A stretch of DNA of 64,000 nucleotides, taken from NCBI GenBank assembly GCA_963665095.1, contig OY762069.1:320001-384000 (forward strand), read 5' to 3'. The DNA is from an uncultured Desulfobacter sp. Lineage in GTDB: Bacteria > Desulfobacterota > Desulfobacteria > Desulfobacterales > Desulfobacteraceae. Made by a program: the position numbers and the translations under genes. Shown one piece after another: positions 1,837 through 19,248 of this stretch (position 1 is its first letter; each line of letters starts with the position of its first letter). The notes below the pieces were generated by a model. It made no database searches and had not been told where the DNA came from. It was given only the letters and a program-made list of their open reading frames with translations.

Positions 1837-2137
1837 ACGGCACATTGACAGGTGTACACACTCCCAGTCCGCCCTATATCTGTTTCTGGTGTGTGTGGCC
1901 GACAGTCAAGGCATCAGCTACTATGGAGATAAGGCGATCATGGATCGGCTGTGCATGGATTCTGATGGCCTGAAGACAGCACGTTCCGGGTTAATACAGA
2001 ATGGGCTGATTGCCTGGCAGAGACCTATTTACCAGGTGCTTGCCCTTGACCCTGCTCCTGGTAAATCAAAACGGCACGGCTCCATGCTGCGTCTTTCAGA
2101 TATTCTAAAAGCAGCAGCGGAGGGCAACCATGATTGA
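1751..2137 (+). CDS. Small putative winged-HTH protein carried by the IS21 element
   Basis: 128 aa, GGAG RBS, ALYLFLVCVAD..G.SYY pattern resembling HTH/replication-initiator N-terminal domains; overlaps istA start. Confidence 0.7.
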   Translation: MIAKAPILPSRVRKTPQSFSWIDHRLVRERHIDRCTHSQSALYLFLVCVADSQGISYYGDKAIMDRLCMDSDGLKTARSGLIQNGLIAWQRPIYQVLALDPAPGKSKRHGSMLRLSDILKAAAEGNHD

Positions 2138-3605
2138 TTACGAAACCTATGTTCAAATCAGAAATTACTTTACCCGAGACGGCCTGACATACAGCCAGAT
2201 TGCCAATGCCCTTGATCTGGACCCCAGGACAGTTGCCAGGTGGGCCAACCTGAAAAGGTACCAGCCCAGACAGTCAGCCCCCAGAGAAAGCAAGCTTGAT
2301 CCGTATAAGAACGCCATCCTGCATATGCTTGAAAAACATCCCTACAGTTCCCGCCAGATATTTCAACGAATCACCCAGGATGGTTTTGCCGGGGGCATCA
2401 CCATTGTTGAGGATTATGTCAGGAAGGTGCGGCCGCCCAAAACAAAGGCGTATTTGAAACTGAGTTTTGCTCCGGGTGAAGCTGCCCAGGTGGACTGGGG
2501 TTCTTATAGTACAGTAAGGGTGGGCAACACGACCCGGCGGTTGAGCTTTTTTGTGATGGTGATGTGCCACAGCCGCATGATGTACGTTGAGTTCACGGTC
2601 TCCCAGACCATGGAGCATTTTTTAGGCTGCCACCAGAATGCATTTGAGTTTTTTGGAAAGGTGCCGGAAAAGGTCATGGTGGACAATCTCAAATCCGCTG
2701 TTCTAAAAAGACTGCTGGGGAAAGCCCCGGTCTTCAACCCCAGATACCTTGATTTTGCAGATTATTACGGATTTACAATTGTTCCCTGTAATGTGCGCAA
2801 GGGTAATGAAAAAGGCCGGGTTGAAAATGCTGTGGGCTATGTCAAAAAGAATCTGCTCAACGGTCTTGAAATCCCTGATTTTAAGATCATGGAGCCCACC
2901 TGCAAACACTGGCTTGATACTGTCGCCAATGTCAGAACCCACGGAGAGACCGGTCAAAAGCCCGCAGAGATGTATGCCCTGGAATTGCCCCACCTATACC
3001 CTCTGCCGTCAGAACCCTATGATATCGGTGTGGTAAAGCAGGTACGGGCTTCAAGACAGTACAGGGTAGTCATCGATACAAATGCTTACACAGTACCCGC
3101 CCAGCTGGCAGGGGTGGCTTTGACTGCCAAGCTTTACCCTGATCGGATCTGCTTTTACCATGAAGACAAGTTGGTTGCCCGCCATGTCAGATCCTATGGC
3201 CGCAAAAACGACCTTGAAGATCCTGATCACTCTAAAATCCTTTTGAGCCAGCGCAAAAAGGCCAGAGACCAGGCAATTTATATGCGTTTTTTAAGCCTCT
3301 CTGACAAGGCCCGGGAGTATTACAGGCAATTGCAGAACAGGCGGCTTAACGCCTCCCATCATGTACGGCAAATCGTGGCCTTGAGTGAAATCTACTCCCG
3401 GGAACAAGTTGCCATGGCCATTGAAGATGCCTTTAAGTTCTCTGCATTCTCATGTGAATACATCGCCAACCTCCTTGAGCAGCGGGTTCGGTCTCCCCAG
3501 GAGCCCGGAGCCCTGCATGTTACACATAAAGCAGATTTACTGAACCTGACAATCCAGGAGCCTGATCTTAATATTTATACCGCCATAGGAGATAAAAATG
3601 CCTGA
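2130..3605 (+). CDS. istA: IS21 transposase IstA
   Basis: N-terminal HTH, PGEAAQVDWG, VDNLKSAV, EKGRVENAVGYVK (DDE), RTHGETG. Confidence 0.95.
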   Translation: MIDYETYVQIRNYFTRDGLTYSQIANALDLDPRTVARWANLKRYQPRQSAPRESKLDPYKNAILHMLEKHPYSSRQIFQRITQDGFAGGITIVEDYVRKVRPPKTKAYLKLSFAPGEAAQVDWGSYSTVRVGNTTRRLSFFVMVMCHSRMMYVEFTVSQTMEHFLGCHQNAFEFFGKVPEKVMVDNLKSAVLKRLLGKAPVFNPRYLDFADYYGFTIVPCNVRKGNEKGRVENAVGYVKKNLLNGLEIPDFKIMEPTCKHWLDTVANVRTHGETGQKPAEMYALELPHLYPLPSEPYDIGVVKQVRASRQYRVVIDTNAYTVPAQLAGVALTAKLYPDRICFYHEDKLVARHVRSYGRKNDLEDPDHSKILLSQRKKARDQAIYMRFLSLSDKAREYYRQLQNRRLNASHHVRQIVALSEIYSREQVAMAIEDAFKFSAFSCEYIANLLEQRVRSPQEPGALHVTHKADLLNLTIQEPDLNIYTAIGDKNA

Positions 3606-4332
3606 TCTTGAGAAATGCCTGTCCCACTTAAAACTACCTTATATCAGGGAAAACTATGAGTCAGTGGCTACCCTGGCTGCCCAGAAGCAATGGAGCCACG
3701 TTCAATATCTATCAGAGCTTGCCAGGCATGAATCACTACTGCGCCATGATAAAACCATCCAGCGCCGTATCCGTATGGCCAAGTTCCCGGTAATCAAAAC
3801 CCTGGACCAGTTCAACTGGTCATGGCCCAGAAAAATCAATCAGGCTCAGATCCAGAATCTGTTCAGACTCAAGTTCATTGAAGAAAAGGGTAACATTATC
3901 GTGATCGGCCCGGTCGGTGTTGGGAAAACACATATTGCGACTGCTTTAGGTTACCAGGCCTGCCTGAAAAACCATACGGTTCTGTTCTCTTCTGCCATTG
4001 ATATCGTCAACAATCTGGTGGCAGCCCAGAAGGCGGGTCAGTTAAAGCAGGAACTGAGAAAATACCTCAAGCCAACTTTGTTGATCATGGATGAACTGGG
4101 CTACCTGCCCATTGACAAGATTGGGGCAGACCTGTTGTTCCAAATTATCAGTCAGCGCTATGAGCAAGGAGCCATCATAATAACCACAAACCGGGTGTTC
4201 AAAGATTGGCCGGAGATCTTCAACAATGACATGACATTAACATCAGCTTTGCTGGACAGGCTTCTTCACCACACCGAGCCTGTGGTCATTGAGGGTAAGA
4301 GTTTTAGAATGAAAGATGTGACGGAAGAATAA
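3598..4332 (+). CDS. istB: IS21 ATPase IstB
   Basis: Walker A GPVGVGKT, Walker B LLIMDELGYLP, LLDRLLHH, IEGKSFR. Confidence 0.95.
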   Translation: MPDLEKCLSHLKLPYIRENYESVATLAAQKQWSHVQYLSELARHESLLRHDKTIQRRIRMAKFPVIKTLDQFNWSWPRKINQAQIQNLFRLKFIEEKGNIIVIGPVGVGKTHIATALGYQACLKNHTVLFSSAIDIVNNLVAAQKAGQLKQELRKYLKPTLLIMDELGYLPIDKIGADLLFQIISQRYEQGAIIITTNRVFKDWPEIFNNDMTLTSALLDRLLHHTEPVVIEGKSFRMKDVTEE

Positions 4333-4431
4333 CAAAGCCGAGGCCGGTCTACATGCATCTGGAGGCCGGCCCTTTAATCGCCTACATTTTTAAACCGGGA
4401 GATTTATGACATGTTCACGCCCCGCCTGACA

Positions 4432-4874
4432 CTTCTGCCATTGATATCGTCAACAATCTGGTGGCAGCCCAGAAGGCGGGTCAGTTAAAGCAGGAACTGA
4501 GAAAATACCTCAAGCCAACTTTGTTGATCATGGATGAACTGGGCTACCTGCCCATTGACAAGATTGGGGCAGACCTGTTGTTCCAAATTATCAGTCAGCG
4601 CTATGAGCAAGGAGCCATCATAATAACCACAAACCGGGTGTTCAAAGATTGGCCGGAGATCTTCAACAATGACATGACATTAACATCAGCTTTGCTGGAC
4701 AGGCTTCTTCACCACACCGAGCCTGTGGTCATTGAGGGTAAGAGTTTTAGAATGAAAGATGTGACGGAAGAATAACAAAGCCGAGGCCGGTCTACATGCA
4801 TCTGGAGGCCGGCCCTTTAATCGCCTACATTTTTAAACCGGGAGATTTATGACATGTTCACGCCCCGCCTGACA
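4432..4874 (+). repeat. 443-bp tandem duplication of 3989-4431 (istB 3' half plus second IRR)
   Basis: CTTCTGCCATTG...CCCGCCTGACA repeated directly after the first IRR; the ORF track shows an identical IstB C-terminal peptide. Confidence 0.95.
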
Positions 4875-8340: not shown

Positions 8341-8973
8341 CTATTCCTCAGAAATATCATTATCCGGATAATATTTTTCCAAACAGTCGTCGCATATCCC
8401 GTGACTGAACTCTGCTTCAGAATGATCATGGATATAGGATTCAATCTGGGTCCAATACCCTTTATCATCACGAATTTTTTTGCAATGCGAACAGATGGGC
8501 AAAAGACCACTTAAAGTCTTAACCTTTTCCTGTGCTCTTTTAAGCGAAGTGATATCTTCTAATATTATAATGATTCCATCAAATTTGCCGCTTATATCTA
8601 AACTTTTAGAGAACTTTATGCTGTAGATAAAGGATTGTTGATTTAAGGCAATTTGTTTTTCGAATATCAATGAATCAAGATTGTTGTCTACATAATTATT
8701 AATTTCATGTTCAAGCCACGGCAAAAGTTCAGACAGAGCTGCTCCACCAAAACATGAAGGATCTATATGCTTATCTTCATCCAGATGTTGCTCTATTTCC
8801 AACTGGCGATCTCTACTTAGACAGTAATATTGAGACCCTGGTAAAATATTTGTTTTAAATAATTCAGCAGCCAAAAGGTTCATGTTATCAATCTTTTTCG
8901 CACGATTCAGAATTATCACTGGATTTGGTATACTTTCAAATATGGTCAGATATTTATTTTTTTCATTCGTCAT
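8341..8973 (-). pseudogene. 3' part of PAS-domain sensor gene interrupted by a transposon
   Basis: PAS-like IFESIPNPVIILN...EDITSLK and C-terminal LPICSHCKKIRDDKGYW...SHGICDDC motif; joins in frame to 12515-13035 when 8974-12514 and one GTCAT are removed (383 codons). Confidence 0.88.
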
Positions 8974-9050
8974 TGAGAGGAAGCACGATAATCAATGGAG
9001 CGACAATCAGGATAAATCAGGGAAAGGCATAACTGTATTTTCAATGATTA

Positions 9051-9248
9051 GCAGATGTCGCTGCGCTCCGACTGATTTTATTGGGTTTTTTAAGGCATGA
9101 GCAGGAAAGCTTGAATAATACAGAAAGGGGAAGCAGGTCAACCCCGCTTCCCCCGGCGCATTATTCAATGCTACCTGCTTTTGGCTATCCCTTGCCGGGT
9201 TTCCTCCCCAGGATGTCCCGGCTCCGTTTCACCAAAACCATAAAATTC
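9051..9248 (-). ncRNA. Putative structured RNA element, copy 1 (3' end of transposon A)
   Basis: Nested stems, homologous to 13285-13475 with compensatory and G-U changes; see findings. Confidence 0.6.
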
Positions 9249-9413
9249 ATTTTCTCTTTGTTCCTCTTGTTTGATCTCCAGCAATTCTGTCAAAAGATGA
9301 TTTTCCGAGTTTATTTTTTTTAAACTGACAAGGATCAACTCCATGACCAGATTGCCCAGCTCGTCGACAATTTCAGCCATTGTTTTTTCAAGTTGTGTTT
9401 CATTGATTGTCAT
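9171..9413 (-). CDS. Small acidic hypothetical protein in transposon A
   Basis: 80 aa, GAGG RBS directly after the ATPase stop; its 3' end runs into the structured element. Confidence 0.45.
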   Translation of the reverse strand: MTINETQLEKTMAEIVDELGNLVMELILVSLKKINSENHLLTELLEIKQEEQRENEFYGFGETEPGHPGEETRQGIAKSR

Positions 9414-9424
9414 TTTTATACCTC

Positions 9425-10249
9425 TTATCTGGTTGGCGACGGTTTCAGTGAAAAAAGCTCTATGAAAAGTTTCTCATCCAGTTGCGGCAGCTCTCTTTGA
9501 ACGCCCACTTCAAGCAGTTCTGCCGACATATTATTGAGGACCCGTAAGTTTCCTGTACAGTGCTCTACCAAAGCGGTGATTAAAGGTTTTGTCATGAGTT
9601 GAGGAGCTCCGGCCTGATTTAGGCAATGCGCTATATAATCCAACAATTCTTCCCGGGTATAAGGATCCAATTTTAACCGGAACCGGAGTCGACTCCCCAG
9701 GGCTACCAATGCACTGGTTCTGAACCGTTCCGGCAGCCGGGTATCACCACAGATAATGGTGGTCAATAAATTCTGGGAGTCAAAATCCATACTGTTGAGC
9801 AACCGAAGCTCATTCAGGCATCCGGTAAGCATTTCCTGAGCCTCATCAATGAGCAGGACGGGTCTGAACAGGGTTGTTTTAATATGATTTTTCCATCGTT
9901 GCCGCAGATCTTTGAACCCTCCGTAACGGTTGGCCGGACTCAAATTGACACCAAACAGTGTCCCCATTTCCCGATAGAAATCGGCCACGCTGCTTTGGGG
10001 GCGCTCCATAACGCCGACAACGACTTCATCAAGCTTGCCAAGCTGATGGGCAATCGCCTGTAGTGTCTTGGATTTGCCAAGACCGGGTTCACCGGCGATT
10101 AATGCAAATCCACCGTTCATGGTCATATTTTCAAGGCGTGTAATAAATGCCTCCATCCGGGGTGGATGCCATAATGAGTCCACAGGAATATTTGGTAAAA
10201 AAGGATTGTACTTCAATCCATAATAAGCCAATAATCGTTTGCTGTTCAT
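9425..10249 (-). CDS. ExeA/TnsC-like AAA+ ATPase
   Basis: YYGLKYNPF N-terminus, Walker A GEPGLGKS, Walker B LLIDEAQ, GNLRVLNN; start overlaps the transposase stop (TGATG). Confidence 0.9.
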   Translation of the reverse strand: MNSKRLLAYYGLKYNPFLPNIPVDSLWHPPRMEAFITRLENMTMNGGFALIAGEPGLGKSKTLQAIAHQLGKLDEVVVGVMERPQSSVADFYREMGTLFGVNLSPANRYGGFKDLRQRWKNHIKTTLFRPVLLIDEAQEMLTGCLNELRLLNSMDFDSQNLLTTIICGDTRLPERFRTSALVALGSRLRFRLKLDPYTREELLDYIAHCLNQAGAPQLMTKPLITALVEHCTGNLRVLNNMSAELLEVGVQRELPQLDEKLFIELFSLKPSPTR

Positions 10250-11694
10250 CACTTTTCCTCCATTGGCAAGTAGGCACAAGGCATTCCGGTTGCTGCATAA
10301 TCGGACAAGAGCTTTTTAAGCAGGGCCGGTTCTGATCCGGACAGGGTTTCATGGCCAGGGTTAATTTCATCCGGAGTGGATTTGATACGACGGATTGCTG
10401 AAGCATTCTTTGTCTTGTCCTGGGGATAAATTGCGGCAAGCTTATTTCCGGTTCGTTTATCTATCAGCCAGGCAACCGATTTATCCCAGGAGCAAAAACA
10501 GACATGAAGACGCTGGATATGATTAAACCGTGAAGGGATTTCAAACCGGATGCCCATCAAAGAGATGGTACCATCGGACAGACGCTGTTTTCTGGATTCA
10601 CAGGCTGTAAACGAAAATTGAAGCTGTTCAGGTTCCGGTGCAGGACGTGACACATCCTTGCCGTCAAGGGCGCATTGCAATGGCGACATATGAATTTCAT
10701 CATGGGTTGACTTGTTGTATTCCATCTCGATCCAGGCCTGGGAGACCTGATTTAAATATACCAGGGTCAAAGAATCCATCCGGCTCAGCATGGCGATCAA
10801 ACGGCCTTCAAGTGTACCCCAAAAGGCTTCCTGCTTCCCATTTTGATAGGGCGAGTATGGCAACGTGGTCTCATGACTGACGCCCAATCGTTTAAGTCCG
10901 TTGCCGGTTTCATGAGCAATCATGGCAGAACCATTATCTGTCATCAAGGCTCTGGGAAGCCCTCTTTTGTAAAACGCCTGGGACAAGCCGTGGATCAAAA
11001 CCTCTGCCGTTTCATTCAAATACCATTGAATATGACAACACAGACGGGAGCGATCATCAAGAATGCACAATGCCTTGGGCGTATGCCACTGACCTTTTTC
11101 GTCCACCACGCGCCTGCTGCATTCGTGAAAGTCCAGATGCCATAATTCATGGATGTTTTCGGTTTCATAACTACGGACTTCATACGTTTCTAATCGCTTA
11201 AAAGCTGATTTCTGTCCGGATGTTTGATTTTTGTTCTTGGAAGCCTTTTTTCTCCAACCCCGTTCAACCATACGCCTTCTCACACTTGCATAGGACGGCG
11301 GATTCTCACACAGGCCCTGTTCAGCGATTTCAGCTGCCAGGTTGTCGCAATGAAGCTGATAGCTCCATTGCGGATAAGTGTTGTACTGGACACCAAGAAG
11401 GCGGATCAATTCAGCATTCAATGCTGTGGATTTGCCCATATCTGAACGAACTTTACGGCCCAGAGCCAGAATTGGGTCCTGGCAATTTTTTGCCCTGTAA
11501 TACCAGGCCTCAATTGTGGAAAAATGAAAACAGGTCGGTTTGTTCGTCACAGGATGAGAATAGATTTGACCTGCGAGCCGGGTCAGTTCATTTTGCAACT
11601 CTCCCTTTGCCGGAGGGCGTGCCAGTAAACCGCCGATAACCGAAAAGCGAAATAATGCCCACAGGTCTGCCGGGTGCTGTGTTTTACCACTCAT
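10249..11694 (-). CDS. DDE (rve / Mu-TnsB-like) transposase
   Basis: WHLDFH, LDDRSRL, MTDNGS, PYQNGKQE catalytic motifs; Mu-like C-terminal beta domain (DGTISL.G.RFEIP). Confidence 0.92.
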   Translation of the reverse strand: MSGKTQHPADLWALFRFSVIGGLLARPPAKGELQNELTRLAGQIYSHPVTNKPTCFHFSTIEAWYYRAKNCQDPILALGRKVRSDMGKSTALNAELIRLLGVQYNTYPQWSYQLHCDNLAAEIAEQGLCENPPSYASVRRRMVERGWRKKASKNKNQTSGQKSAFKRLETYEVRSYETENIHELWHLDFHECSRRVVDEKGQWHTPKALCILDDRSRLCCHIQWYLNETAEVLIHGLSQAFYKRGLPRALMTDNGSAMIAHETGNGLKRLGVSHETTLPYSPYQNGKQEAFWGTLEGRLIAMLSRMDSLTLVYLNQVSQAWIEMEYNKSTHDEIHMSPLQCALDGKDVSRPAPEPEQLQFSFTACESRKQRLSDGTISLMGIRFEIPSRFNHIQRLHVCFCSWDKSVAWLIDKRTGNKLAAIYPQDKTKNASAIRRIKSTPDEINPGHETLSGSEPALLKKLLSDYAATGMPCAYLPMEEK

Positions 11695-11800
11695 AAATCA
11701 GGCTCCTTTTTAATTTCAGGTTAAAATTTCGGATCAACGTCTGAAATCAGGTGGTAAAACAGCCTGCATATATTTGTCTATGTTCATCCTCTGCGCGAGA

Positions 11801-12376
11801 TTATCCGGCCCTGATTTTGGACCCGCCTGATAAGATTATCAGGCTTGATACAAGTGCGTTTTCGGCGTTGGATTTCACCGCCCGGCAATAATTGATGAAA
11901 CTTGACGGCAGACGGCTGTTACTGACACCAGCGGATATCTGCCCCCGAAGCCTTCGCCAGGTTCGGCTCACTGGAAATGTATCCTGAAAAAAGGCAAGCC
12001 AGCGGTTTATTGTGTTCCGGCTAATGCCAGTTCGTATGGACAAATCATAAACGGTGATTTTTTCATTGGTATTTTGCCAGTCTGTTAAAACACACAGAAT
12101 AACTGCAAACCAGTAGACTTTTCTCCCCAGAAAACGGCAGGACGGCGGCATCAATCTTTTGCGACACCCTTCGGTTCCACAACATAGGCTGAACTGAATA
12201 AAGAATTCCTCCGGCACGCCCTCAGGCTCTCCCCGGGGCTTGCGCATGTAATTGCTGAAATATAAGGGGCCTCCACAATGCGGACAAGGCAACTGTCTGT
12301 ACTGTTTTGCTGTATTTTTATCGATTTCGTAAAGATGGAAAAAAAGATTTTTGTTTTTAATAAGTTCTGATAGCAT
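11801..12376 (-). CDS. Zn-ribbon/HTH protein (DUF6431-like) leading transposon A
   Basis: CPHCGG...CCGTEGCRKR..PPS, later HTH-like ISRNTINRW; GGAG RBS. Confidence 0.75.
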   Translation of the reverse strand: MLSELIKNKNLFFHLYEIDKNTAKQYRQLPCPHCGGPLYFSNYMRKPRGEPEGVPEEFFIQFSLCCGTEGCRKRLMPPSCRFLGRKVYWFAVILCVLTDWQNTNEKITVYDLSIRTGISRNTINRWLAFFQDTFPVSRTWRRLRGQISAGVSNSRLPSSFINYCRAVKSNAENALVSSLIILSGGSKIRAG

Positions 12377-12514
12377 ATCTCCTGCCCTGTTAGGGTAATA
12401 GGGGCAGAAGTTCCATTGATTATTTGCGAGATAAACGGGGGAGCTTCTGCCTCATCCCTGGCATATCTTGCAAATTATCTTTAATTTTTCCATGATTTTT
12501 TGTGATCATTCTCA

Positions 12515-13035
12515 GTCATCATTCGATTATTGATTTGAAGTTCCAGGATGGCATTATCACCTTTCGAACCTGACCACTCCACACAAAAGCCAATCTCAAT
12601 GCGATCAAATATCCTGTTTAAAAATAATTCATAATCCCTAAGGACGGTCCGATCCGTTATTTTATCGTGGATTAAATCAATATAGGACTGTCGATAATAC
12701 TTCATTAACCCAAGAAACATGTTTAGACTAACTCCTCTTTCTCTATGTTTTTGTGCTTCAACAATGCCAAACATAGCGATTGGGTCATCATTCCTATCTT
12801 CTTCTGGGGTTAATTCTGGAGCAGTCGTATTTGCTTTAAGCCCTTGTAGAATGGAGCCAGTTAAGCCTGATATCGATAGTCGCCAAGCTTCCTTTAAAGT
12901 TGACGTGTAAGCTGAATACCCTTGCTTTAATGCATACTCAAGTATTCTGCTCATCAACCATTCTTCATTGTCTATGAAGATTGACTCTAATAGTTTATAT
13001 TTTGATTGTTCATTTTCATGTTGTGTTTTTTTCAT
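12515..13035 (-). pseudogene. 5' part of the interrupted PAS sensor gene (RsbRD_N/globin-like sensor domain)
   Basis: MKKTQHEN...EAQKHRERGVSLNMFLGLMKYYRQ...NNRMMT, continues as (T)NEKNKYL at 8968. Confidence 0.85.
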
Positions 13036-13284
13036 ACTTCTTATTTTACACAAACCAACGCTGAAAAACAATAATCCAAAAACTCAGCTAATAAGAACCC
13101 ATAAATAATGGTATTTAAGAACTCCTAAGCCTATTTTGAGGCGGCGGTCATTATTTTTGTTATTGGTGACATATATCGAAAATCTGGAAGATCAAATCAA
13201 TGTGTTGAGTCGCATTTTATCCTGACTTAAATTTTCTAATTATTTTGAACAGATTAAATCTTTTCCATATTATTTAAGACAGCT

Positions 13285-13475
13285 ACAGAAGTCGCTGCGC
13301 TCCTTCTCAGTAGGTTTTTAAGGCATAGGCAGAACAGCTTGAATAAAGCAGAAAGGGGAAGCAGGTAATCCCCACTTCCCCTGGCGCATTATTCAATGCT
13401 GCCTGCTTCCGGCTATCCCTTACCAGGTTGCTCCTCAGCAGAGCCCGGCTCCGTTTCACCGAAATCGTAATATTC
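13285..13475 (-). ncRNA. Putative structured RNA element, copy 2 (3' end of transposon B)
   Basis: Starts about 20 nt after the ATPase stop; homologous to 9051-9248 with covariation. Confidence 0.6.
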
Positions 13476-13495
13476 TGCTCTATGGCTGTTTTTTC

Positions 13496-14305
13496 TTAAA
13501 AAATCTCCGATGAAGCAATGCGGACATGCTCTGCAGATACCGTCATTGATTTTTCTGCCGCAGCAGCAATCAATGAGCCTCTGGCAAGATTATTCGCCTT
13601 TCGTAAAAGGCCGCCGGAGCCTTGATGAATCGCAGTCACCGCCTGGTCAGAAAAAAAGTTGGTGTCAACACCGCATAGTTTTAAATGATGGATCAGGTAA
13701 GTTTTCATTCCAGCCACATCCAGACCATCCAGATGGCTTTTAGCCACAATCCTGGATGCAAACGGGATTGACGTCCGGTACTGAAGCTTATCTATCAATG
13801 TCGGCTGACCTGCAAGGATCACAGGCAGCCAGGGCATGGCGTCTTTTTCAAATTGAACCAGGGTGTGAAGTTCGGCAAAGACTTCCATGCGAAGCAGAGA
13901 TGCCTCATCTATAATCAAAACGGTTTTGATCTTTTTTCCCAGGACGAATTCACGTATTTCATTTTTAATAATGGAGATCATAACAGCGCGGGACGTCGAT
14001 GTCCGCTCTATGCCCAGTTCTTCAACAATCTGCCGGTAAAGTTCCATGATGGAACCGCTTGAGGCCGTAACATAAAAGACTTTGTATTCCGAAGGGTGTA
14101 GGGATGAGGCGGCATACCTTAAGGCGGTGGACTTTCCGCTGCCCACATCCCCTGTGATAACCGCACTGCAGCCAAGTCTTAAGGAATAATCAATCCGATT
14201 TTTAACGCCCGAGACCTCCGGGGTGACCAGGATATCATTGATTTCTATCTGTGCCGGGAAGGCCTCCCTATATAAGCCAAAAAAGGTACGATACATTTCA
14301 CTCAT
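13496..14305 (-). CDS. ExeA/TnsC-like AAA+ ATPase
   Basis: Walker A GDVGSGKS, Walker B LIIDEAS, LAGQP, GGLLRKANN. Confidence 0.9.
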   Translation of the reverse strand: MSEMYRTFFGLYREAFPAQIEINDILVTPEVSGVKNRIDYSLRLGCSAVITGDVGSGKSTALRYAASSLHPSEYKVFYVTASSGSIMELYRQIVEELGIERTSTSRAVMISIIKNEIREFVLGKKIKTVLIIDEASLLRMEVFAELHTLVQFEKDAMPWLPVILAGQPTLIDKLQYRTSIPFASRIVAKSHLDGLDVAGMKTYLIHHLKLCGVDTNFFSDQAVTAIHQGSGGLLRKANNLARGSLIAAAAEKSMTVSAEHVRIASSEIF

Positions 14306-15558
14306 AACAGTTGCCCTCCCTTGTAATTTGAGGGTTCAGGCATAATCCGGATATCATTTTCGTTCCAGCGGTGCCGCTTGACCCGACAGTTCACAGCAAG
14401 GTCCACCGGGGTTAACAAGCCATAAGACTTTGCTTTATAGATAACTTCAGCCTGCAAAGGGGTGTCCTCATGGTACTTTACATCCACATGTCTGCCGATC
14501 AGCGCAACCGGGGCCTCAAACATGTTGCCGTCAAGGGTTATGGTTCGGTCCTTTGCCACCTTGCGCCGGGCGGTTTTGCGGAAGTGGTCTTTCAGATCCG
14601 GTGGGGCGGTACGGATGCACTCCATGGCCGAGGTAAATCTTTTAAACGGTGATTCGCCTGTGGAGCTGTGTTTACGCTGATGGTACTCATTATGAAGCCA
14701 CTTCTCAAATGCCCCATTCAGATCATCCAGGGTCTTACCTGTAAATCTTTGCAGAAACTGAAGCCGAACCGTTCTGAACCAGCGCTCGATTTTACCTTTC
14801 CCCTGGGGCTTATATGGCCTTGCATGGATTAAAGCGATGGACAGAGACGCTGCTACATATTTTAAATGATGGGATCTGAACGCAGGACCGTTATCTACAT
14901 ACAGCTTGCGGGGAAGCCCACGGCTCAAAAAAGCCTGCTCCAGCACCATAAGATAGGTCTTCAGATTCTCAGATAAATAAAAACCTGCAGCCGTAACCAG
15001 CCTGGAATGATCGTCCATAATGGCAATCAGGTACGTTTTTCTTTGCTTATCCTGAACCAGGACTGTAGGGCCGTGCATGACGTCGCTTTGCCACATATCA
15101 TTGGGGTGCGGGGCTTCAAACTTTCTTCTATCCTCTGGCCGGGCCGTGTTCATTAGCCCCCGGCCGCGTAAAAAACGGTATACACTGGATGGACTGTATG
15201 TCTGGCATGTAGTTTTTTGAAGTGAACAGATCAATGTATCGACTGTCGCATCAGGCTGGTCTAACCGGAGTTTGATTAGTTGAGATGCAGTCTCGTCATC
15301 GAATACCCTTGATTTTCCCTGGTCTGAACGGTCTTTGGGGTAAAGAGACTCTATTCGACCGTTATACTGCCGGACCCATCCCAGAATCGTACTTCTGGAA
15401 AGCCTGGTCCTTCCAGAATACGGGATGGACCATTTGCGGGCGCACTTCTGCTGTAAAATTCGTTCTTTTTCACCGTAATCAAAATTTGTTCCGGTCACAA
15501 ATTCACAAATGACCCCAAACCTGAACACGGCAACCTCTTTTTTCTGATTTTCTGTCAT
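14302..15558 (-). CDS. DDE (rve / Mu-TnsB-like) transposase
   Basis: WQSDVMHGP, MDDHSRL, LYVDNGPAF, PQGKGKIERWF; AGGAGG RBS. Confidence 0.92.
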   Translation of the reverse strand: MTENQKKEVAVFRFGVICEFVTGTNFDYGEKERILQQKCARKWSIPYSGRTRLSRSTILGWVRQYNGRIESLYPKDRSDQGKSRVFDDETASQLIKLRLDQPDATVDTLICSLQKTTCQTYSPSSVYRFLRGRGLMNTARPEDRRKFEAPHPNDMWQSDVMHGPTVLVQDKQRKTYLIAIMDDHSRLVTAAGFYLSENLKTYLMVLEQAFLSRGLPRKLYVDNGPAFRSHHLKYVAASLSIALIHARPYKPQGKGKIERWFRTVRLQFLQRFTGKTLDDLNGAFEKWLHNEYHQRKHSSTGESPFKRFTSAMECIRTAPPDLKDHFRKTARRKVAKDRTITLDGNMFEAPVALIGRHVDVKYHEDTPLQAEVIYKAKSYGLLTPVDLAVNCRVKRHRWNENDIRIMPEPSNYKGGQLL

Positions 15559-15661
15559 ACTTCCTCCTTAAAATTTGGTTCTAAGGGCTTGTATGACAGT
15601 ATGATCCTTCGGTAAATCACAGCCTTCGGTAGGGTGGTTTAACCCTGATCCAGCCCCATGG

Positions 15662-16108
15662 TTAAATTGAACTAGTAACCGGGATTTTACCCATACCGAT
15701 TAGCTTGATAAAACCAGCAACCACACCTTTGTCCCAACTGTTGGACAGGTAGGCCGCTATATTTCGTTTCAATGCAGTAAACCAAAAATGCTGTCGACTC
15801 CAGGAGAGTTCCGGCAGATACCGGTCTGTGTATAGACGACTCATAATGCTGGTAAGGATTTGCCAGATACTGGCCTGGAACCTCTTGAAAAAACCATATG
15901 GCTTCAATTTGAATACGGTTTTGCAATAGGGGCAGCGATATCGCTTCAAATACACCCCTTGATCAAATCCATCAAAAAAGGAGAGTACAAAGCCGTGTCC
16001 CCACAGCCTGGAGTCGTTGCAATGTGGACATCGTGACGGTTTTGGCCATGTAAAATTTTTGCCCTGCTTGAAAATTTGCTTGATATCAGCTTTGACCTTT
16101 ATTATCAT
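15662..16108 (-). CDS. Zn-ribbon protein (DUF6431-like) leading transposon B
   Basis: CPHC..RLWGHG...LKRYRCPYCK motif. Confidence 0.75.
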   Translation of the reverse strand: MIIKVKADIKQIFKQGKNFTWPKPSRCPHCNDSRLWGHGFVLSFFDGFDQGVYLKRYRCPYCKTVFKLKPYGFFKRFQASIWQILTSIMSRLYTDRYLPELSWSRQHFWFTALKRNIAAYLSNSWDKGVVAGFIKLIGMGKIPVTSSI

Positions 16109-16146
16109 TTTTATGGTTGTTTTGGGATTTTATAAATCCCGGTCTT

Positions 16147-16187
16147 AAGGGCGAGGCTCTGCAAAGCTTTTCGCCCTTTTCATTTTT
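16147..16187 (+). terminator. Plus-strand intrinsic terminator inside the right end of transposon B
   Basis: AAGGGCGA.GGCT/AGCT..TCGCCCTT followed by TTCATTTTT. Confidence 0.5.
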
Positions 16188-16459
16188 GTCAGAATGCTTT
16201 GATCAGAACCTGTACAGGATAATTTGAGAAAAATGGAACTTTGTCAATTTAATATGAAAAATTTGGCGGGTTTTTGTTCAGGTTATTTCGGGAATCTACA
16301 AATGGATCTTAGGTGAAGACTACCCCAAGACAAGTACCTATCCCTGTCAATATTTTTTCAGGACTCTTATGGAAAAATTGGATTTGGATCTGATCAGGTT
16401 AGCGTTACACAAAGGGAAATAAAGAGGCCTGTCATATATCACTTGCTTTAAAATAAATT

Positions 16460-17333: not shown

Positions 17334-19248
17334 GTGCGCCACGAGGGCGCAGGATACCAGCGGATGAAAGTTCCGCCCGGGAAATTATCGGTTCATCCCG
17401 GTAGCGACCCAGACAGTGGGATAGGGAGACCTTCCTGCTGAAGCTCTGGGGACAGATGTAAGCCTATAGGGCTGCAGCAACCTGGCAGGCCGCAACGTGA
17501 GTGAACCTTGAGCAGGCCTCGAAAGGACAGTCGTGGATGCCGACCCGCCCAACATTCGGGGAAGGCCGAAGCGGAACGGGGATGTAACCGATCCACTCGT
17601 TTCGATCCACCGGGGTAATGAGGGCAGCATGCCAGGAAGGTATTCTGGGTAACGTGGGAGACCCGTCCCGAATGCGGAGTAGTGACCCGCAACAATCCAT
17701 TCGTGAATTGGTTCGGGCGGGAGTCGGAGAGGGCAATAGTACCGATGATTCCGGGTAATGCCGGTTGAGGGAAGTGCCCTTACTTCTGATGTTCTTTTGA
17801 AAGAAATGAGATGAGGTGATTGGCTATGGGCCTAGAAACACCAAACAGGATTCGGACTTTCCAGAGAAAGATTTACCTTAAGGCGAAGTCGGAACCGGAC
17901 TATCGATTTTATCTTCTTTATGACAAGATATATCGACCCGACATCCTTTTACATGCCTATTTGTCGGCAAAGCTGAATAAAGGCTCGGCCGGAGTAGATG
18001 GGGTAACCTTCAAACAAATTGAAGAGAAGGGGCTCGGAGAATGGTTGTCCGGGATCAGAAATGAATTACGTGAAAAGACATACAAGCCACAGCCTGTTTT
18101 ACGTGTAATGATCCCAAAACCAAATGGGGGGAGTCGTCCGCTTGGGATTCCTACCATAAGGGACAGGGTAGTTCAAACCGCAACCAAACTGGTCATAGAG
18201 CCTATATTTGAAGCAGATCTTGAGCCCAATACATTCGGCTATCGTCCAAAACGCAGTGCTTTGGATGCCATCCAAATGGTCCACCAATTGCTTTGCCAGG
18301 GTTACACCGATGTTGTTGATGCGGACTTGTCCAAGTATTTTGACACGATTCCACACAGCGAATTGATCAAGTGTGTAAGCCGCAGGATTGTGGATCGTAA
18401 TGTGCTCAGGCTGATTAAATTATGGCTCAAAGTGCCGGTAGAGAAGCGGGATAAAGATGGCCGGGGGCAAATGAGCGGCGGCCGGAAGAATCAACAAGGA
18501 ACGCCGCAAGGAGGCGTTATCAGCCCTCTGCTGGCCAATATATACATGAATCGATTTCTGAAATACTGGCGGATCAAAGGATGCAATGAAATCTTCCGTG
18601 CTCGGATTGTCTCATATGCGGATGATTTCGTTATCCTGAGCCGAGGCAGGGCGTCAGATGCGTTGAATCTGACCGATGCCGTTATGACGCGACTTGGACT
18701 CAAATTGAATCAGGACAAGACCGTCATTGTAAATGCCCAAAACGGGGATTTTGATTTTCTCGGCTATACCTTTGGGCAGATCTGGTTTCGGAAAACAGGA
18801 AGAAGGTATATGGGGGCAAGTCCATCAAAGAAGAGCGTGAAACGGTTGAAACAGAAGGTGAGAACTATTCTGCGCCCTGGTGAGAAGGGCGCATGGCCGG
18901 ATGTTAGAGATCGGCTGAACGACCTATTGCAGGGTTGGAGTGCTTACTTCTGTTACGGCACGACCCAGATAGCCTATCGTGCTGTTGAACGGCATGTCTA
19001 TAATCGCGTCAGACGTTTTCTGGTCAGTCGGCACAAAGTGCGTTCACAAGGCATACGCCGGTTTCCATCACAGAGAGTATTTGGTGAACTTGGGGTACTC
19101 TTACCGAGACCGATGAAACGTACCGTACGACGTGTGCCTTAAGGTGAAGTCAGTCGGAAAGCCGGATGCGGTAGCACCGCACGTCCGGTTTGATGAGCAG
19201 GGGCAGGAAACGGAACGGATTTGTCACCGCGCTTGCCCTTGACTCTAC
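17334..19248 (+). mobile_element. Group II intron, apparently complete
   Basis: 5' GTGCG at 17334; domain V AAAGCCGGATGCGGTAGCACCGCACGTCCGGTTT (19158-19191); DVI GGGCAGG...CTTGCCC...CTCTAC 3' end; EBS1 CAACAT (17550-17555) complementary to exon IBS1 ATGTTG (17328-17333). Confidence 0.95.
17826..19142 (+). CDS. ltrA: Group II intron reverse transcriptase/maturase without endonuclease domain
   Basis: RPLGIPTIRDRVVQ, GTPQGGVISPLLANIY, YADD, FDFLGY, maturase X domain; no HNH. Confidence 0.95.
   Translation: MGLETPNRIRTFQRKIYLKAKSEPDYRFYLLYDKIYRPDILLHAYLSAKLNKGSAGVDGVTFKQIEEKGLGEWLSGIRNELREKTYKPQPVLRVMIPKPNGGSRPLGIPTIRDRVVQTATKLVIEPIFEADLEPNTFGYRPKRSALDAIQMVHQLLCQGYTDVVDADLSKYFDTIPHSELIKCVSRRIVDRNVLRLIKLWLKVPVEKRDKDGRGQMSGGRKNQQGTPQGGVISPLLANIYMNRFLKYWRIKGCNEIFRARIVSYADDFVILSRGRASDALNLTDAVMTRLGLKLNQDKTVIVNAQNGDFDFLGYTFGQIWFRKTGRRYMGASPSKKSVKRLKQKVRTILRPGEKGAWPDVRDRLNDLLQGWSAYFCYGTTQIAYRAVERHVYNRVRRFLVSRHKVRSQGIRRFPSQRVFGELGVLLPRPMKRTVRRVP

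Follow-up and report, generated by a model that had tools for sequence, protein, structure and literature searches.

A structured module carried by unrelated bacterial mobile elements and its possible part in second-strand DNA synthesis

Why would two transposons with clearly different proteins carry a strongly similar noncoding sequence? The question is raised by a stretch of 64,000 nucleotides (hereafter the window) from an uncultured Desulfobacter sp. (assembly GCA_963665095.1, contig OY762069.1, positions 320,001 to 384,000), in which two elements, E1 and E2, each encode a DDE transposase and an ATPase and contain, near their right ends, a similar block (9051-9248 in E1 and 13285-13475 in E2; 80.2% identity over 197 nt). 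The proteins are as different as the original prediction held them to be: the transposases are 27.6% identical, and the ATPases have no blastp match to each other at E<=1e-3. The same prediction read the block as a structural RNA that defines a TnsB/TnsC-like transposon family. We conclude that the block is, very probably, a real module, undescribed in detail, that crosses transposase families, and we tentatively suggest for it a part in second-strand synthesis.

Read on the minus strand, both copies fold more stably than shuffled sequences (z -5.7 for copy 1 and -4.6 for copy 2), and three of the parts that had been proposed are present: the GCCGGG stem, the tip hairpin, and the inner hairpin together with its compensatory pair. 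Other parts of the proposed structure had to be redrawn. The AAGG, which had been taken for the foot of the long arm, belongs to an internal loop and is pseudoknot-paired to the 3' tail. A GCAG/CUGC hairpin is unsupported; homologs read GAGCG(C/A)AGCGA, which is a GCGNAGC mini-hairpin within a short outer stem. A closing stem, P0, had been overlooked (UUUUGGU/GCCAAAA in copy 1, UUUCGGU/GCCGGAA in copy 2), and the apical loop, GGGG in copy 1 and GAGG in copy 2, pairs with CCC or CCU farther along the tail, a compensated difference between the copies. A conserved peptide or small open reading frame (ORF) was rejected as an explanation: the reading frame differs between the copies, and the AUG in the tail is often followed by a stop codon.

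In the family as a whole, the predicted fold stacks three stems, continues in a variable arm whose tip resembles a terminator, and finishes with a 3' tail engaged in two covarying pseudoknots. Type 1, to which both window copies belong, runs P0, loop GAARCGGA, P1, a 3-nt bulge, P2 with a GRRR loop, P1', loop AG(G/C)RAUA and P0', followed by the variable arm and the tail AUG(C/G)CU-NN-AAAA-YYY. Type 2 is a second form with a different internal loop and tail. The covariation first seen between two copies holds in a larger, model-fitted alignment of 73 sequences, 57 of which were used for building the model: paired cells make up 90.3%, compared with 66.7% after shuffling and at most about 44% when slid. 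Changes on both sides were found in 21 of 25 pairs, including 7/7 in P0 (the best-covarying helix of the family), 5/6 in P1, 5/5 at the arm base and 3/3 between loop and tail. The loop-tail knot is absent from the alignment model, and after ten rows without a parsed tail were dropped, the RRR of the type 1 loop and the YYY of the tail were exactly complementary in 56 of 63 rows (14.9 shuffled), with five loop variants. In type 2 this pairing is exact in 76 of the 78 rows with a tail; 8 of 86 rows are tail-less. The variable pair of the second knot is Watson-Crick in 57/63 rows compared with 46.9 shuffled (maximum 54), a difference that few changes underlie. Kinship among the sequences inflates the shuffle controls; loop-tail swaps nevertheless recur across phyla.

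How widely is the module distributed? When copy 1 was compared by BLAST with 400 genomes of the phylum, nine further genomes gave matches, five of them real on inspection and one with the match after an IS3 transposase. A model search of 150 genomes of the phylum added one more, from which no prevalence follows because just 20 candidates were scored per genome. BLAST against plasmids and phages found only two plasmids (one with an IS110 gene before the motif, one small), a weak third and one microvirus pair; matches to Escherichia coli plasmids were to a terminator only. The weak plasmid and microvirus matches led us to propose a 20-nt core, which is present at 12 viral loci and at no fewer than 120 loci in genomes, spread over at least seven phyla (Bacteroidota, Acidobacteriota, Planctomycetota, Desulfobacterota, Bacillota, Verrucomicrobiota, Cloacimonadota and others). 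Further exact patterns searched in viral contigs gave no matches, and type 2 was found at at least 118 metagenome loci. Because loci were picked by exact patterns, the inner hairpin is invariant by choice. Among the matches listed, Desulfobacterales and Desulfobulbaceae records are the named sequences most closely related to the two window copies.

Against Rfam 15, the window at gathering threshold gives only a group II intron elsewhere, positions 8900-13600 give eight weak, unrelated matches at E<=10, and 20 homologous loci of both types give none at E<=1. No description of the motif was found in the literature; the 20-nt core, in six spellings, is in no paper text, nor in the searched supplements of PMC8040213 (all but two files). 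The supplements of PMC11109978 (250 mobile or repeat candidates) and PMC5737381, which lay outside the search, may list the motif unnamed. The earlier claim of a conserved, covarying structured nucleic acid of mobile elements is supported, and the motif is absent from Rfam 15.

A survey of neighboring genes covered 160 flanked loci, 80 genome loci (a few of them repeat copies from one genome) and 80 type 2 loci, and a mobile gene lies beside the motif in 113 of them, nearly all from circular-intermediate families, with one IS4-type. The counts by family are raw, without an abundance-corrected background (the Desulfobacter genome itself has 23 DDE_Tnp_1 and 17 IS66 matches). Among the genome loci, a mobile gene could be assigned at 51 (27 IS3/IS481-like, 10 IS110, 5 ISL3, 4 IS256, 2 IS21, 2 tyrosine recombinases and 1 ISNCY-type); another 17 are cut off by a contig edge, and 12 have no assignment. 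The 62 assigned type 2 loci comprise 19 IS3/IS481-like, 10 DUF1670, 9 IS110, 8 IS256, 4 ISL3, 3 IS21, 3 recombinases, 3 ISNCY-type, 2 rolling-circle Reps and 1 IS4; at those left unassigned, the longest nearby ORFs alone were scanned. At least eight unrelated mobile-gene families thus adjoin the motif, in both orientations. In the 51 genome loci, 29 copies are convergent with the mobile gene, 16 downstream in the same sense, 5 divergent and 1 upstream in the same sense; with that last placement in just 1/51, the motif does not stand consistently 5' of a same-sense gene as a riboswitch or cis-regulatory leader would. Within the Desulfobacter genome, all 27 type 1 copies lie in E1 or E2, and type 2 has 10 copies, nine in one IS3 element (Table 1) and one remnant beside a broken IS66 gene. 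There is no free-standing dispersal, and a repetitive extragenic palindrome or miniature inverted-repeat element unlinked to transposases was therefore rejected.

The sequence of the motif tracks host phylum more than transposase family. Among 38 labeled sequences, the nearest neighbor came from the same phylum for 31 (9.6 expected), to which GC content may contribute, and from the same insertion sequence (IS) family for 21 (11.3 expected), and pairs of the same phylum but different family are more similar than pairs of the same family but different phylum.

These observations do not support the proposal that the motif defines an RNA-bearing TnsB/TnsC-like family. Among 15 loci with ATPases 51-80% identical to those of E1 and E2 and at least 250 nt of downstream DNA, the motif is present at one, a RepB'-type primase gene occupies that slot at three (Table 1), and 11 have neither. 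One of the primase genes, that of L170, may lie just outside the E1-like end.

Three further sets of loci are recorded here as observations. At L206, L214, L222, L231, L234, L248, L251, L252, L258 and L273, DUF1670 genes end 50-80 nt before the type 2 motif, and DUF1670 is probably the last gene of an unrecognized mobile element. L278 (type 2) and L322 (type 1), on tailed-phage-like contigs, have the motif directly after the same uncharacterized gene of about 235 aa, with no transposase nearby. In L026 and L116, a tail-less type 2 5' half lies inside the 5' part of the IS21 istA frame, in the same sense.

Family-wide, a promoter ends just before P0 and matches the type of the host phylum: with type 1 windows chosen by eye, a Bacteroidota-type box was found in 16 of 28 loci (0.5 shuffled) and a -10 box in 27 of 38 others (5.9 shuffled). 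In type 2, -35 and -10 peaks lie 17 bp apart (36/89 and 38/89), the -10 peak at 17-18 being taken from the histogram; a preset -10 window of 19-23 nt gave 7/89 against 7.4. A promoter at the 5' end, a mark of an independent small RNA gene, is found across the family and is weak in both window copies; the motif is most likely transcribed. The arm tip hairpin scores as a terminator in the window copies. Of 143 non-redundant members, 74 have a U-rich run after the tip, within the arm's 3' half. In the 50 nt past the tail, an R-N-A triloop hairpin, a signal of the kind expected of a single-strand origin, lies on the sense strand in 46 of 140 members (2.7 expected); controls gave 3 on the antisense strand and 1/136 in the following 50 nt. 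GCGNAGC mini-hairpins are reported to be far more stable as DNA than as RNA and to be present at the priming sites of G4 and RSF1010 ssiA (PMC13037366). The module is a widespread, host-adapted passenger of mobile elements, ordered as promoter, stems, arm and tip, complementary arm strand, tail and, often, mini-hairpin.

Some copies are split or neighbor rolling-circle genes. The motif lies upstream of a rolling-circle Rep gene and in the same sense in L218 (Rep_1), L262 (a weak G2P match) and the microvirus L014, placements that would suit a single-strand origin; IS110 elements carry both orientations. L024 was left out of this count, its gene being terminase-like by eye. In L014, the 5' half stands at the end of a gene; behind it come a terminator-like hairpin and a gene, and the 3' half lies about 850 nt away. 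The arm strand and tail nevertheless match the 5' half, the rarer AGC/GCT pair included, and 5 nt separate the end of the tail from the start codon of Rep. This split pattern, itself derived from the L014 match, occurred in 0/200 shuffles. The halves are 1.2 kb apart in L034 and L036 and 0.3 kb apart in L068, possibly through insertions, and distant tail matches in L053, L027, L029 and L020 were rejected for lack of arm pairing. L262:300-800, with a tRNA-like end, type 2 motif, triloop hairpin, G/C-run hairpin and G2P-like Rep gene in that order, is an integrated rolling-circle element.

IS21 and ISL3 form circles. IS3, IS256 and IS30 use copy-out (PMC7780238), as does one IS110 (bioRxiv 2025.10.25.684509). 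In an IS256 element either end is able to attack the other (PMC7780238), so either orientation of the motif would be allowed.

We favor, with less than even confidence, a reading in which a short RNA docks on downstream single-stranded DNA (ssDNA) and aids second-strand priming of circular intermediates. Host RNA polymerase would make an RNA of about 100 nt, stopping at the tip hairpin. When the same-sense strand of the element turns single-stranded, as a copy-out circle or rolling-circle product, the RNA would pair with the downstream half in DNA by three collinear contacts, at the apical loop, the internal loop and the arm. The RNA:DNA complex, beside the DNA mini-hairpin, could be trimmed to give a primer or could be the place where host priming proteins load. 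Second-strand synthesis would be aided, and the module would be an RNA-assisted single-strand origin, optional and exchanged among elements of one host lineage. We prefer a docking RNA because the contacts between the halves are collinear and antiparallel, a terminator-like hairpin often stands between them, and the last feature of the 3' half is a DNA-type signal. A bolder version is somewhat more doubtful still: that the module is a two-part cassette whose short, host-transcribed RNA recognizes its own downstream ssDNA by a hybrid double pseudoknot and primes the second strand, that it is common to copy-out ISs, rolling-circle replicons and a microvirus in many phyla, and that it is interchangeable with a primase gene.

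Several observations weigh against docking and priming. In the two window copies the promoter is weak and was missed by a promoter scan, and the motif there could simply terminate the element mRNA. The U-rich run is missing from 69/143 arms and the triloop hairpin from 94/140 members. The analysis turned up no transcript, hybrid or primer; RNA-seq runs matching L021 cover mainly the flanking host gene at an empty site or a piece of transposase, leave the motif uncovered and are informative neither way. None of the eight next-closest microviruses has the motif, an incoming phage strand would come without pre-made RNA, and the 3' end of a terminated RNA, not otherwise complementary to the DNA, needs processing. 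One IS110 is reported to circularize its top strand only (bioRxiv 2025.10.25.684509), and the motif occurs in IS110 in both orientations. An IS4 gene adjoins one copy, and a broken IS66 gene another. The motif is dispensable, since 11 of the 15 relatives above have neither RNA nor primase, and any circular intermediate of E1 and E2 themselves is putative.

The alternative that survives best, although we consider it rather unlikely, is that one read-through RNA forms the double pseudoknot alone and regulates, as an attenuator or a ligand- or protein-sensing switch, with outputs such as antisense transcription into the transposase gene, transcription across the element end or control of a downstream Rep. 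The promoter at the first stem, the many invariant unpaired bases and the A-run crossing the stems, which we take to resemble those of H-type RNA pseudoknots, would all suit such an RNA, as would the prevalence of the convergent orientation and the position of the L014 tail just before the Rep start codon. However, there is no single downstream gene, and orientation varies among families; the tail lies beyond the terminator-like hairpin and so cannot compete with it, and the strand-specific DNA-type mini-hairpin is left unexplained.

Could the whole fold be ssDNA, akin to a known single-strand origin (sso) or initiation signal (ssi), with a promoter that merely opens the duplex or makes an R-loop freeing the folding strand? 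We regard this as improbable. The mini-hairpin is on the same strand, and the motif precedes rolling-circle Reps on the displaced strand. A G-U bias had been offered as an argument for RNA over a DNA cruciform, but the bias (87 G-U against 21 A-C in P0) identifies the folding strand and, read as G-T, suits ssDNA as well. UUCG and GNRA loops are not enriched in the arm (2/142 against 1.2 expected), and motifs of this kind are described as not distinguishable from RNA by sequence (PMC5737381). Against an all-DNA fold stand the promoter exactly at the first stem, adapted per phylum, the terminator-like tips, and predicted DNA folds that are weak and hardly strand-biased.

To a similarly small degree we credit a trans-acting RNA that binds a host protein (a component of host defense, a repair factor, or RNA polymerase in the manner of a put-like antiterminator) and so benefits the carrier element. 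Independence from transposase family and orientation fits such an RNA, as do the 31 of 38 same-phylum nearest neighbors and the presence of the motif in the transposase-less contigs of L278 and L322, but the location of the partner strand and mini-hairpin past the terminator would go unexplained, as would the bias toward circle-forming families, and some of the phylum signal may stem from GC content. A new ribozyme class, with the 5' half as catalytic strand and the tail, RNA or DNA, as substrate, is very unlikely: the compact double-knot core, invariant loop bases and enzyme/substrate-like two-strand layout are suggestive, yet neither 8900-13600 nor the 20 loci matched an Rfam ribozyme, no conserved cut-site signature was recognized, and we take the topology to be unlike HDV, twister, pistol and glmS. 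That the motif is a guide or a targeting/assembly scaffold of a distinct TnsB/TnsC-like family is largely refuted and scarcely credible, for although in E1, E2 and the related loci L002, L004, L008 and L182 it follows the ATPase and has the same sense, its neighbors belong to at least eight unrelated families in both orientations, its sequence follows phylum, type 2 sits in an IS3 of the same genome, just 1/15 close relatives carry it, and, with identical copies at 27 unrelated target sites (13 E1, 14 E2), it has no variable guide segment and no fixed partner protein family, which also excludes a bridge, seek or guide RNA.

The docking RNA that we favor has partial precedents. The ColE1 RNA II primer is a promoter-driven folded RNA, followed by a primosome assembly site on the non-template strand, and pairs with the template strand. 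The module would likewise have a promoter-driven folded RNA and then a DNA signal on the non-template strand; unlike those of RNA II, which is several times longer, its contacts would be to the sense strand, and its hosts are transposons. Single-strand origins and initiation signals include the pT181 sso, phiX174 ssi, G4 origin and RSF1010 ssiA (PMC5714925, PMC13037366), and the module shares with them a folded sense strand in replicons with single-stranded stages, mini-hairpins, host dependence and, in L218, L262 and L014, a position upstream of Rep. In those systems, as far as these sources describe them, primase or RNA polymerase reads ssDNA directly, and among the examples found none combines an upstream double-stranded promoter with a terminator and a two-part pseudoknot, or lies in a DDE/DEDD insertion sequence. 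IS110 bridge RNA or seekRNA is also an element-encoded RNA in noncoding ends, with loops that pair with DNA (bioRxiv 2025.10.25.684509); the loops of the module, in contrast, are 3-7 nt, conserved and matched to its own adjacent sequence, and it has no cognate protein and occurs in many non-IS110 families. ARRPOF, GEBRO and PAGEV (PMC5737381) and MRSC-65-2 (PMC11109978) are likewise described as covarying motifs of mobile DNA that may act as RNA or as ssDNA; MRSC-65-2 as described is one long stem with UYCCGG repeats, unlike the module, which has no Rfam match.

The two host elements resemble IS21, Mu, Tn7/Tn552-type elements and IS481 in their rve transposase and ATPase, TG...CA ends and short target duplications, and differ in an AAA_22 (ExeA-like) rather than IstB ATPase and in an additional Cys-rich first ORF (Table 1). 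Their transposases fall below the NCBIfam cut-offs for IS481, IS3 and IS21. E1 has 13 genome copies, and the window copy sits in a PAS-domain gene with a 5-bp duplication; E2 has 14, with a 4-bp duplication in the window. Different duplication lengths had been claimed for the two elements, which is true of the window, although the genome-wide ranges, 3-7 bp in 12 of 13 E1 copies (the remaining copy has none) and 4-5 bp in 13 of 14 E2 copies, overlap. The split gene is a PAS-domain signaling gene (8341-8973 and 12481-13071, the 5-bp duplication at both junctions). The first ~55 residues of the 80-aa ORF of E1 are, by eye, similar to same-slot ORFs of relatives; such small acidic helical ORFs follow the ATPase in the window (9171-9413), L002, L156, L158 and L170, with no Pfam match. 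One E2 copy (G000:C1:1967081-1971497, 4417 bp) is split by a DDE_Tnp_1 element, and many ISs of the genome are nested in one another. Elsewhere in the window are an IS21 element (2130-4775; IstA 491 aa, IstB 244 aa, the 3' part of istB repeated at 4461-4775), to which about 15 rve matches in the genome are related, and a group II intron (17367-19200; Rfam D1-D4-6 match) with a 440-aa reverse-transcriptase-like ORF (17820-19142).

Table 1. Positions of the two elements, their motif copies and related features
Feature	Position	Strand	Details
Motif copy 1 (type 1)	9083..9237	(-)	P0 9231-9237/9179-9185; internal loop 9223-9230/9186-9193; P1 9217-9222/9194-9199; P2 9202-9213, GGGG loop; arm 9099-9178; tail 9083-9098
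Copy 1 arm tip hairpin	9126..9154	(-)	terminator-like
Copy 1 GCGCAGC mini-hairpin	9057..9072 (hairpin 9060-9066)	(-)	GTCG/CGAC stem; DNA-type triloop
Motif copy 2 (type 1)	13312..13464	(-)	P0 13458-13464/13407-13413; internal loop 13450-13457/13414-13421; P1 13444-13449/13422-13427; P2 13429-13440, GAGG loop; arm 13327-13406; tail 13312-13326
Copy 2 arm tip hairpin	13354..13382	(-)	terminator-like
Copy 2 GCGCAGC mini-hairpin	13287..13307	(-)	AGAAG/CTTCT stem; DNA-type triloop
Copy 2 weak promoter-like site	13471..13499	(-)	by eye at the family's usual distance; below scan threshold
Element E1	8974..12514	(-)	3541 bp; TGAG...CTCA ends
E1 first ORF	11801..12376	(-)	191 aa; Cys-rich, weak helix-turn-helix; no family at cut-off
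E1 DDE transposase	10249..11694	(-)	481 aa; rve; best NCBIfam IS481, below cut-off
E1 AAA_22 (ExeA-like) ATPase	9425..10279	(-)	284 aa
E1 small ORF	9171..9413	(-)	80 aa; 3' end overlaps motif RNA
Element E2	13203..16300	(-)	3098 bp; TGTAG...CAACA ends
E2 first ORF	15662..16108	(-)	148 aa; Cys-rich; no family at cut-off
E2 DDE transposase	14302..15558	(-)	418 aa; rve; IS481 208.7 bits, cut-off 224
E2 AAA_22 (ExeA-like) ATPase	13496..14305	(-)	269 aa
Third element (L331 and copies)	G000:C1:526305-527830		1.5-kb IS3; type 2 motif convergent on transposase gene end
RepB'-type DNA primase	L151:2160-3101		right after ATPase
RepB'-type DNA primase	L170:366-1211		right after ATPase
RepB'-type DNA primase	L174:873-1466		right after ATPase

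The copy-out literature, so far as the sources above present it, leaves the replication of the strand-bridged intermediate into a double-stranded circle to unspecified host functions. A discrete, covarying module with swappable loop-tail pairs renders that step directly testable. Even without a part in priming, the module would be an abundant and complex structured RNA or ssDNA family, missing from Rfam, that unrelated mobile elements have repeatedly acquired, and such crossing of transposase families is known for few noncoding modules.

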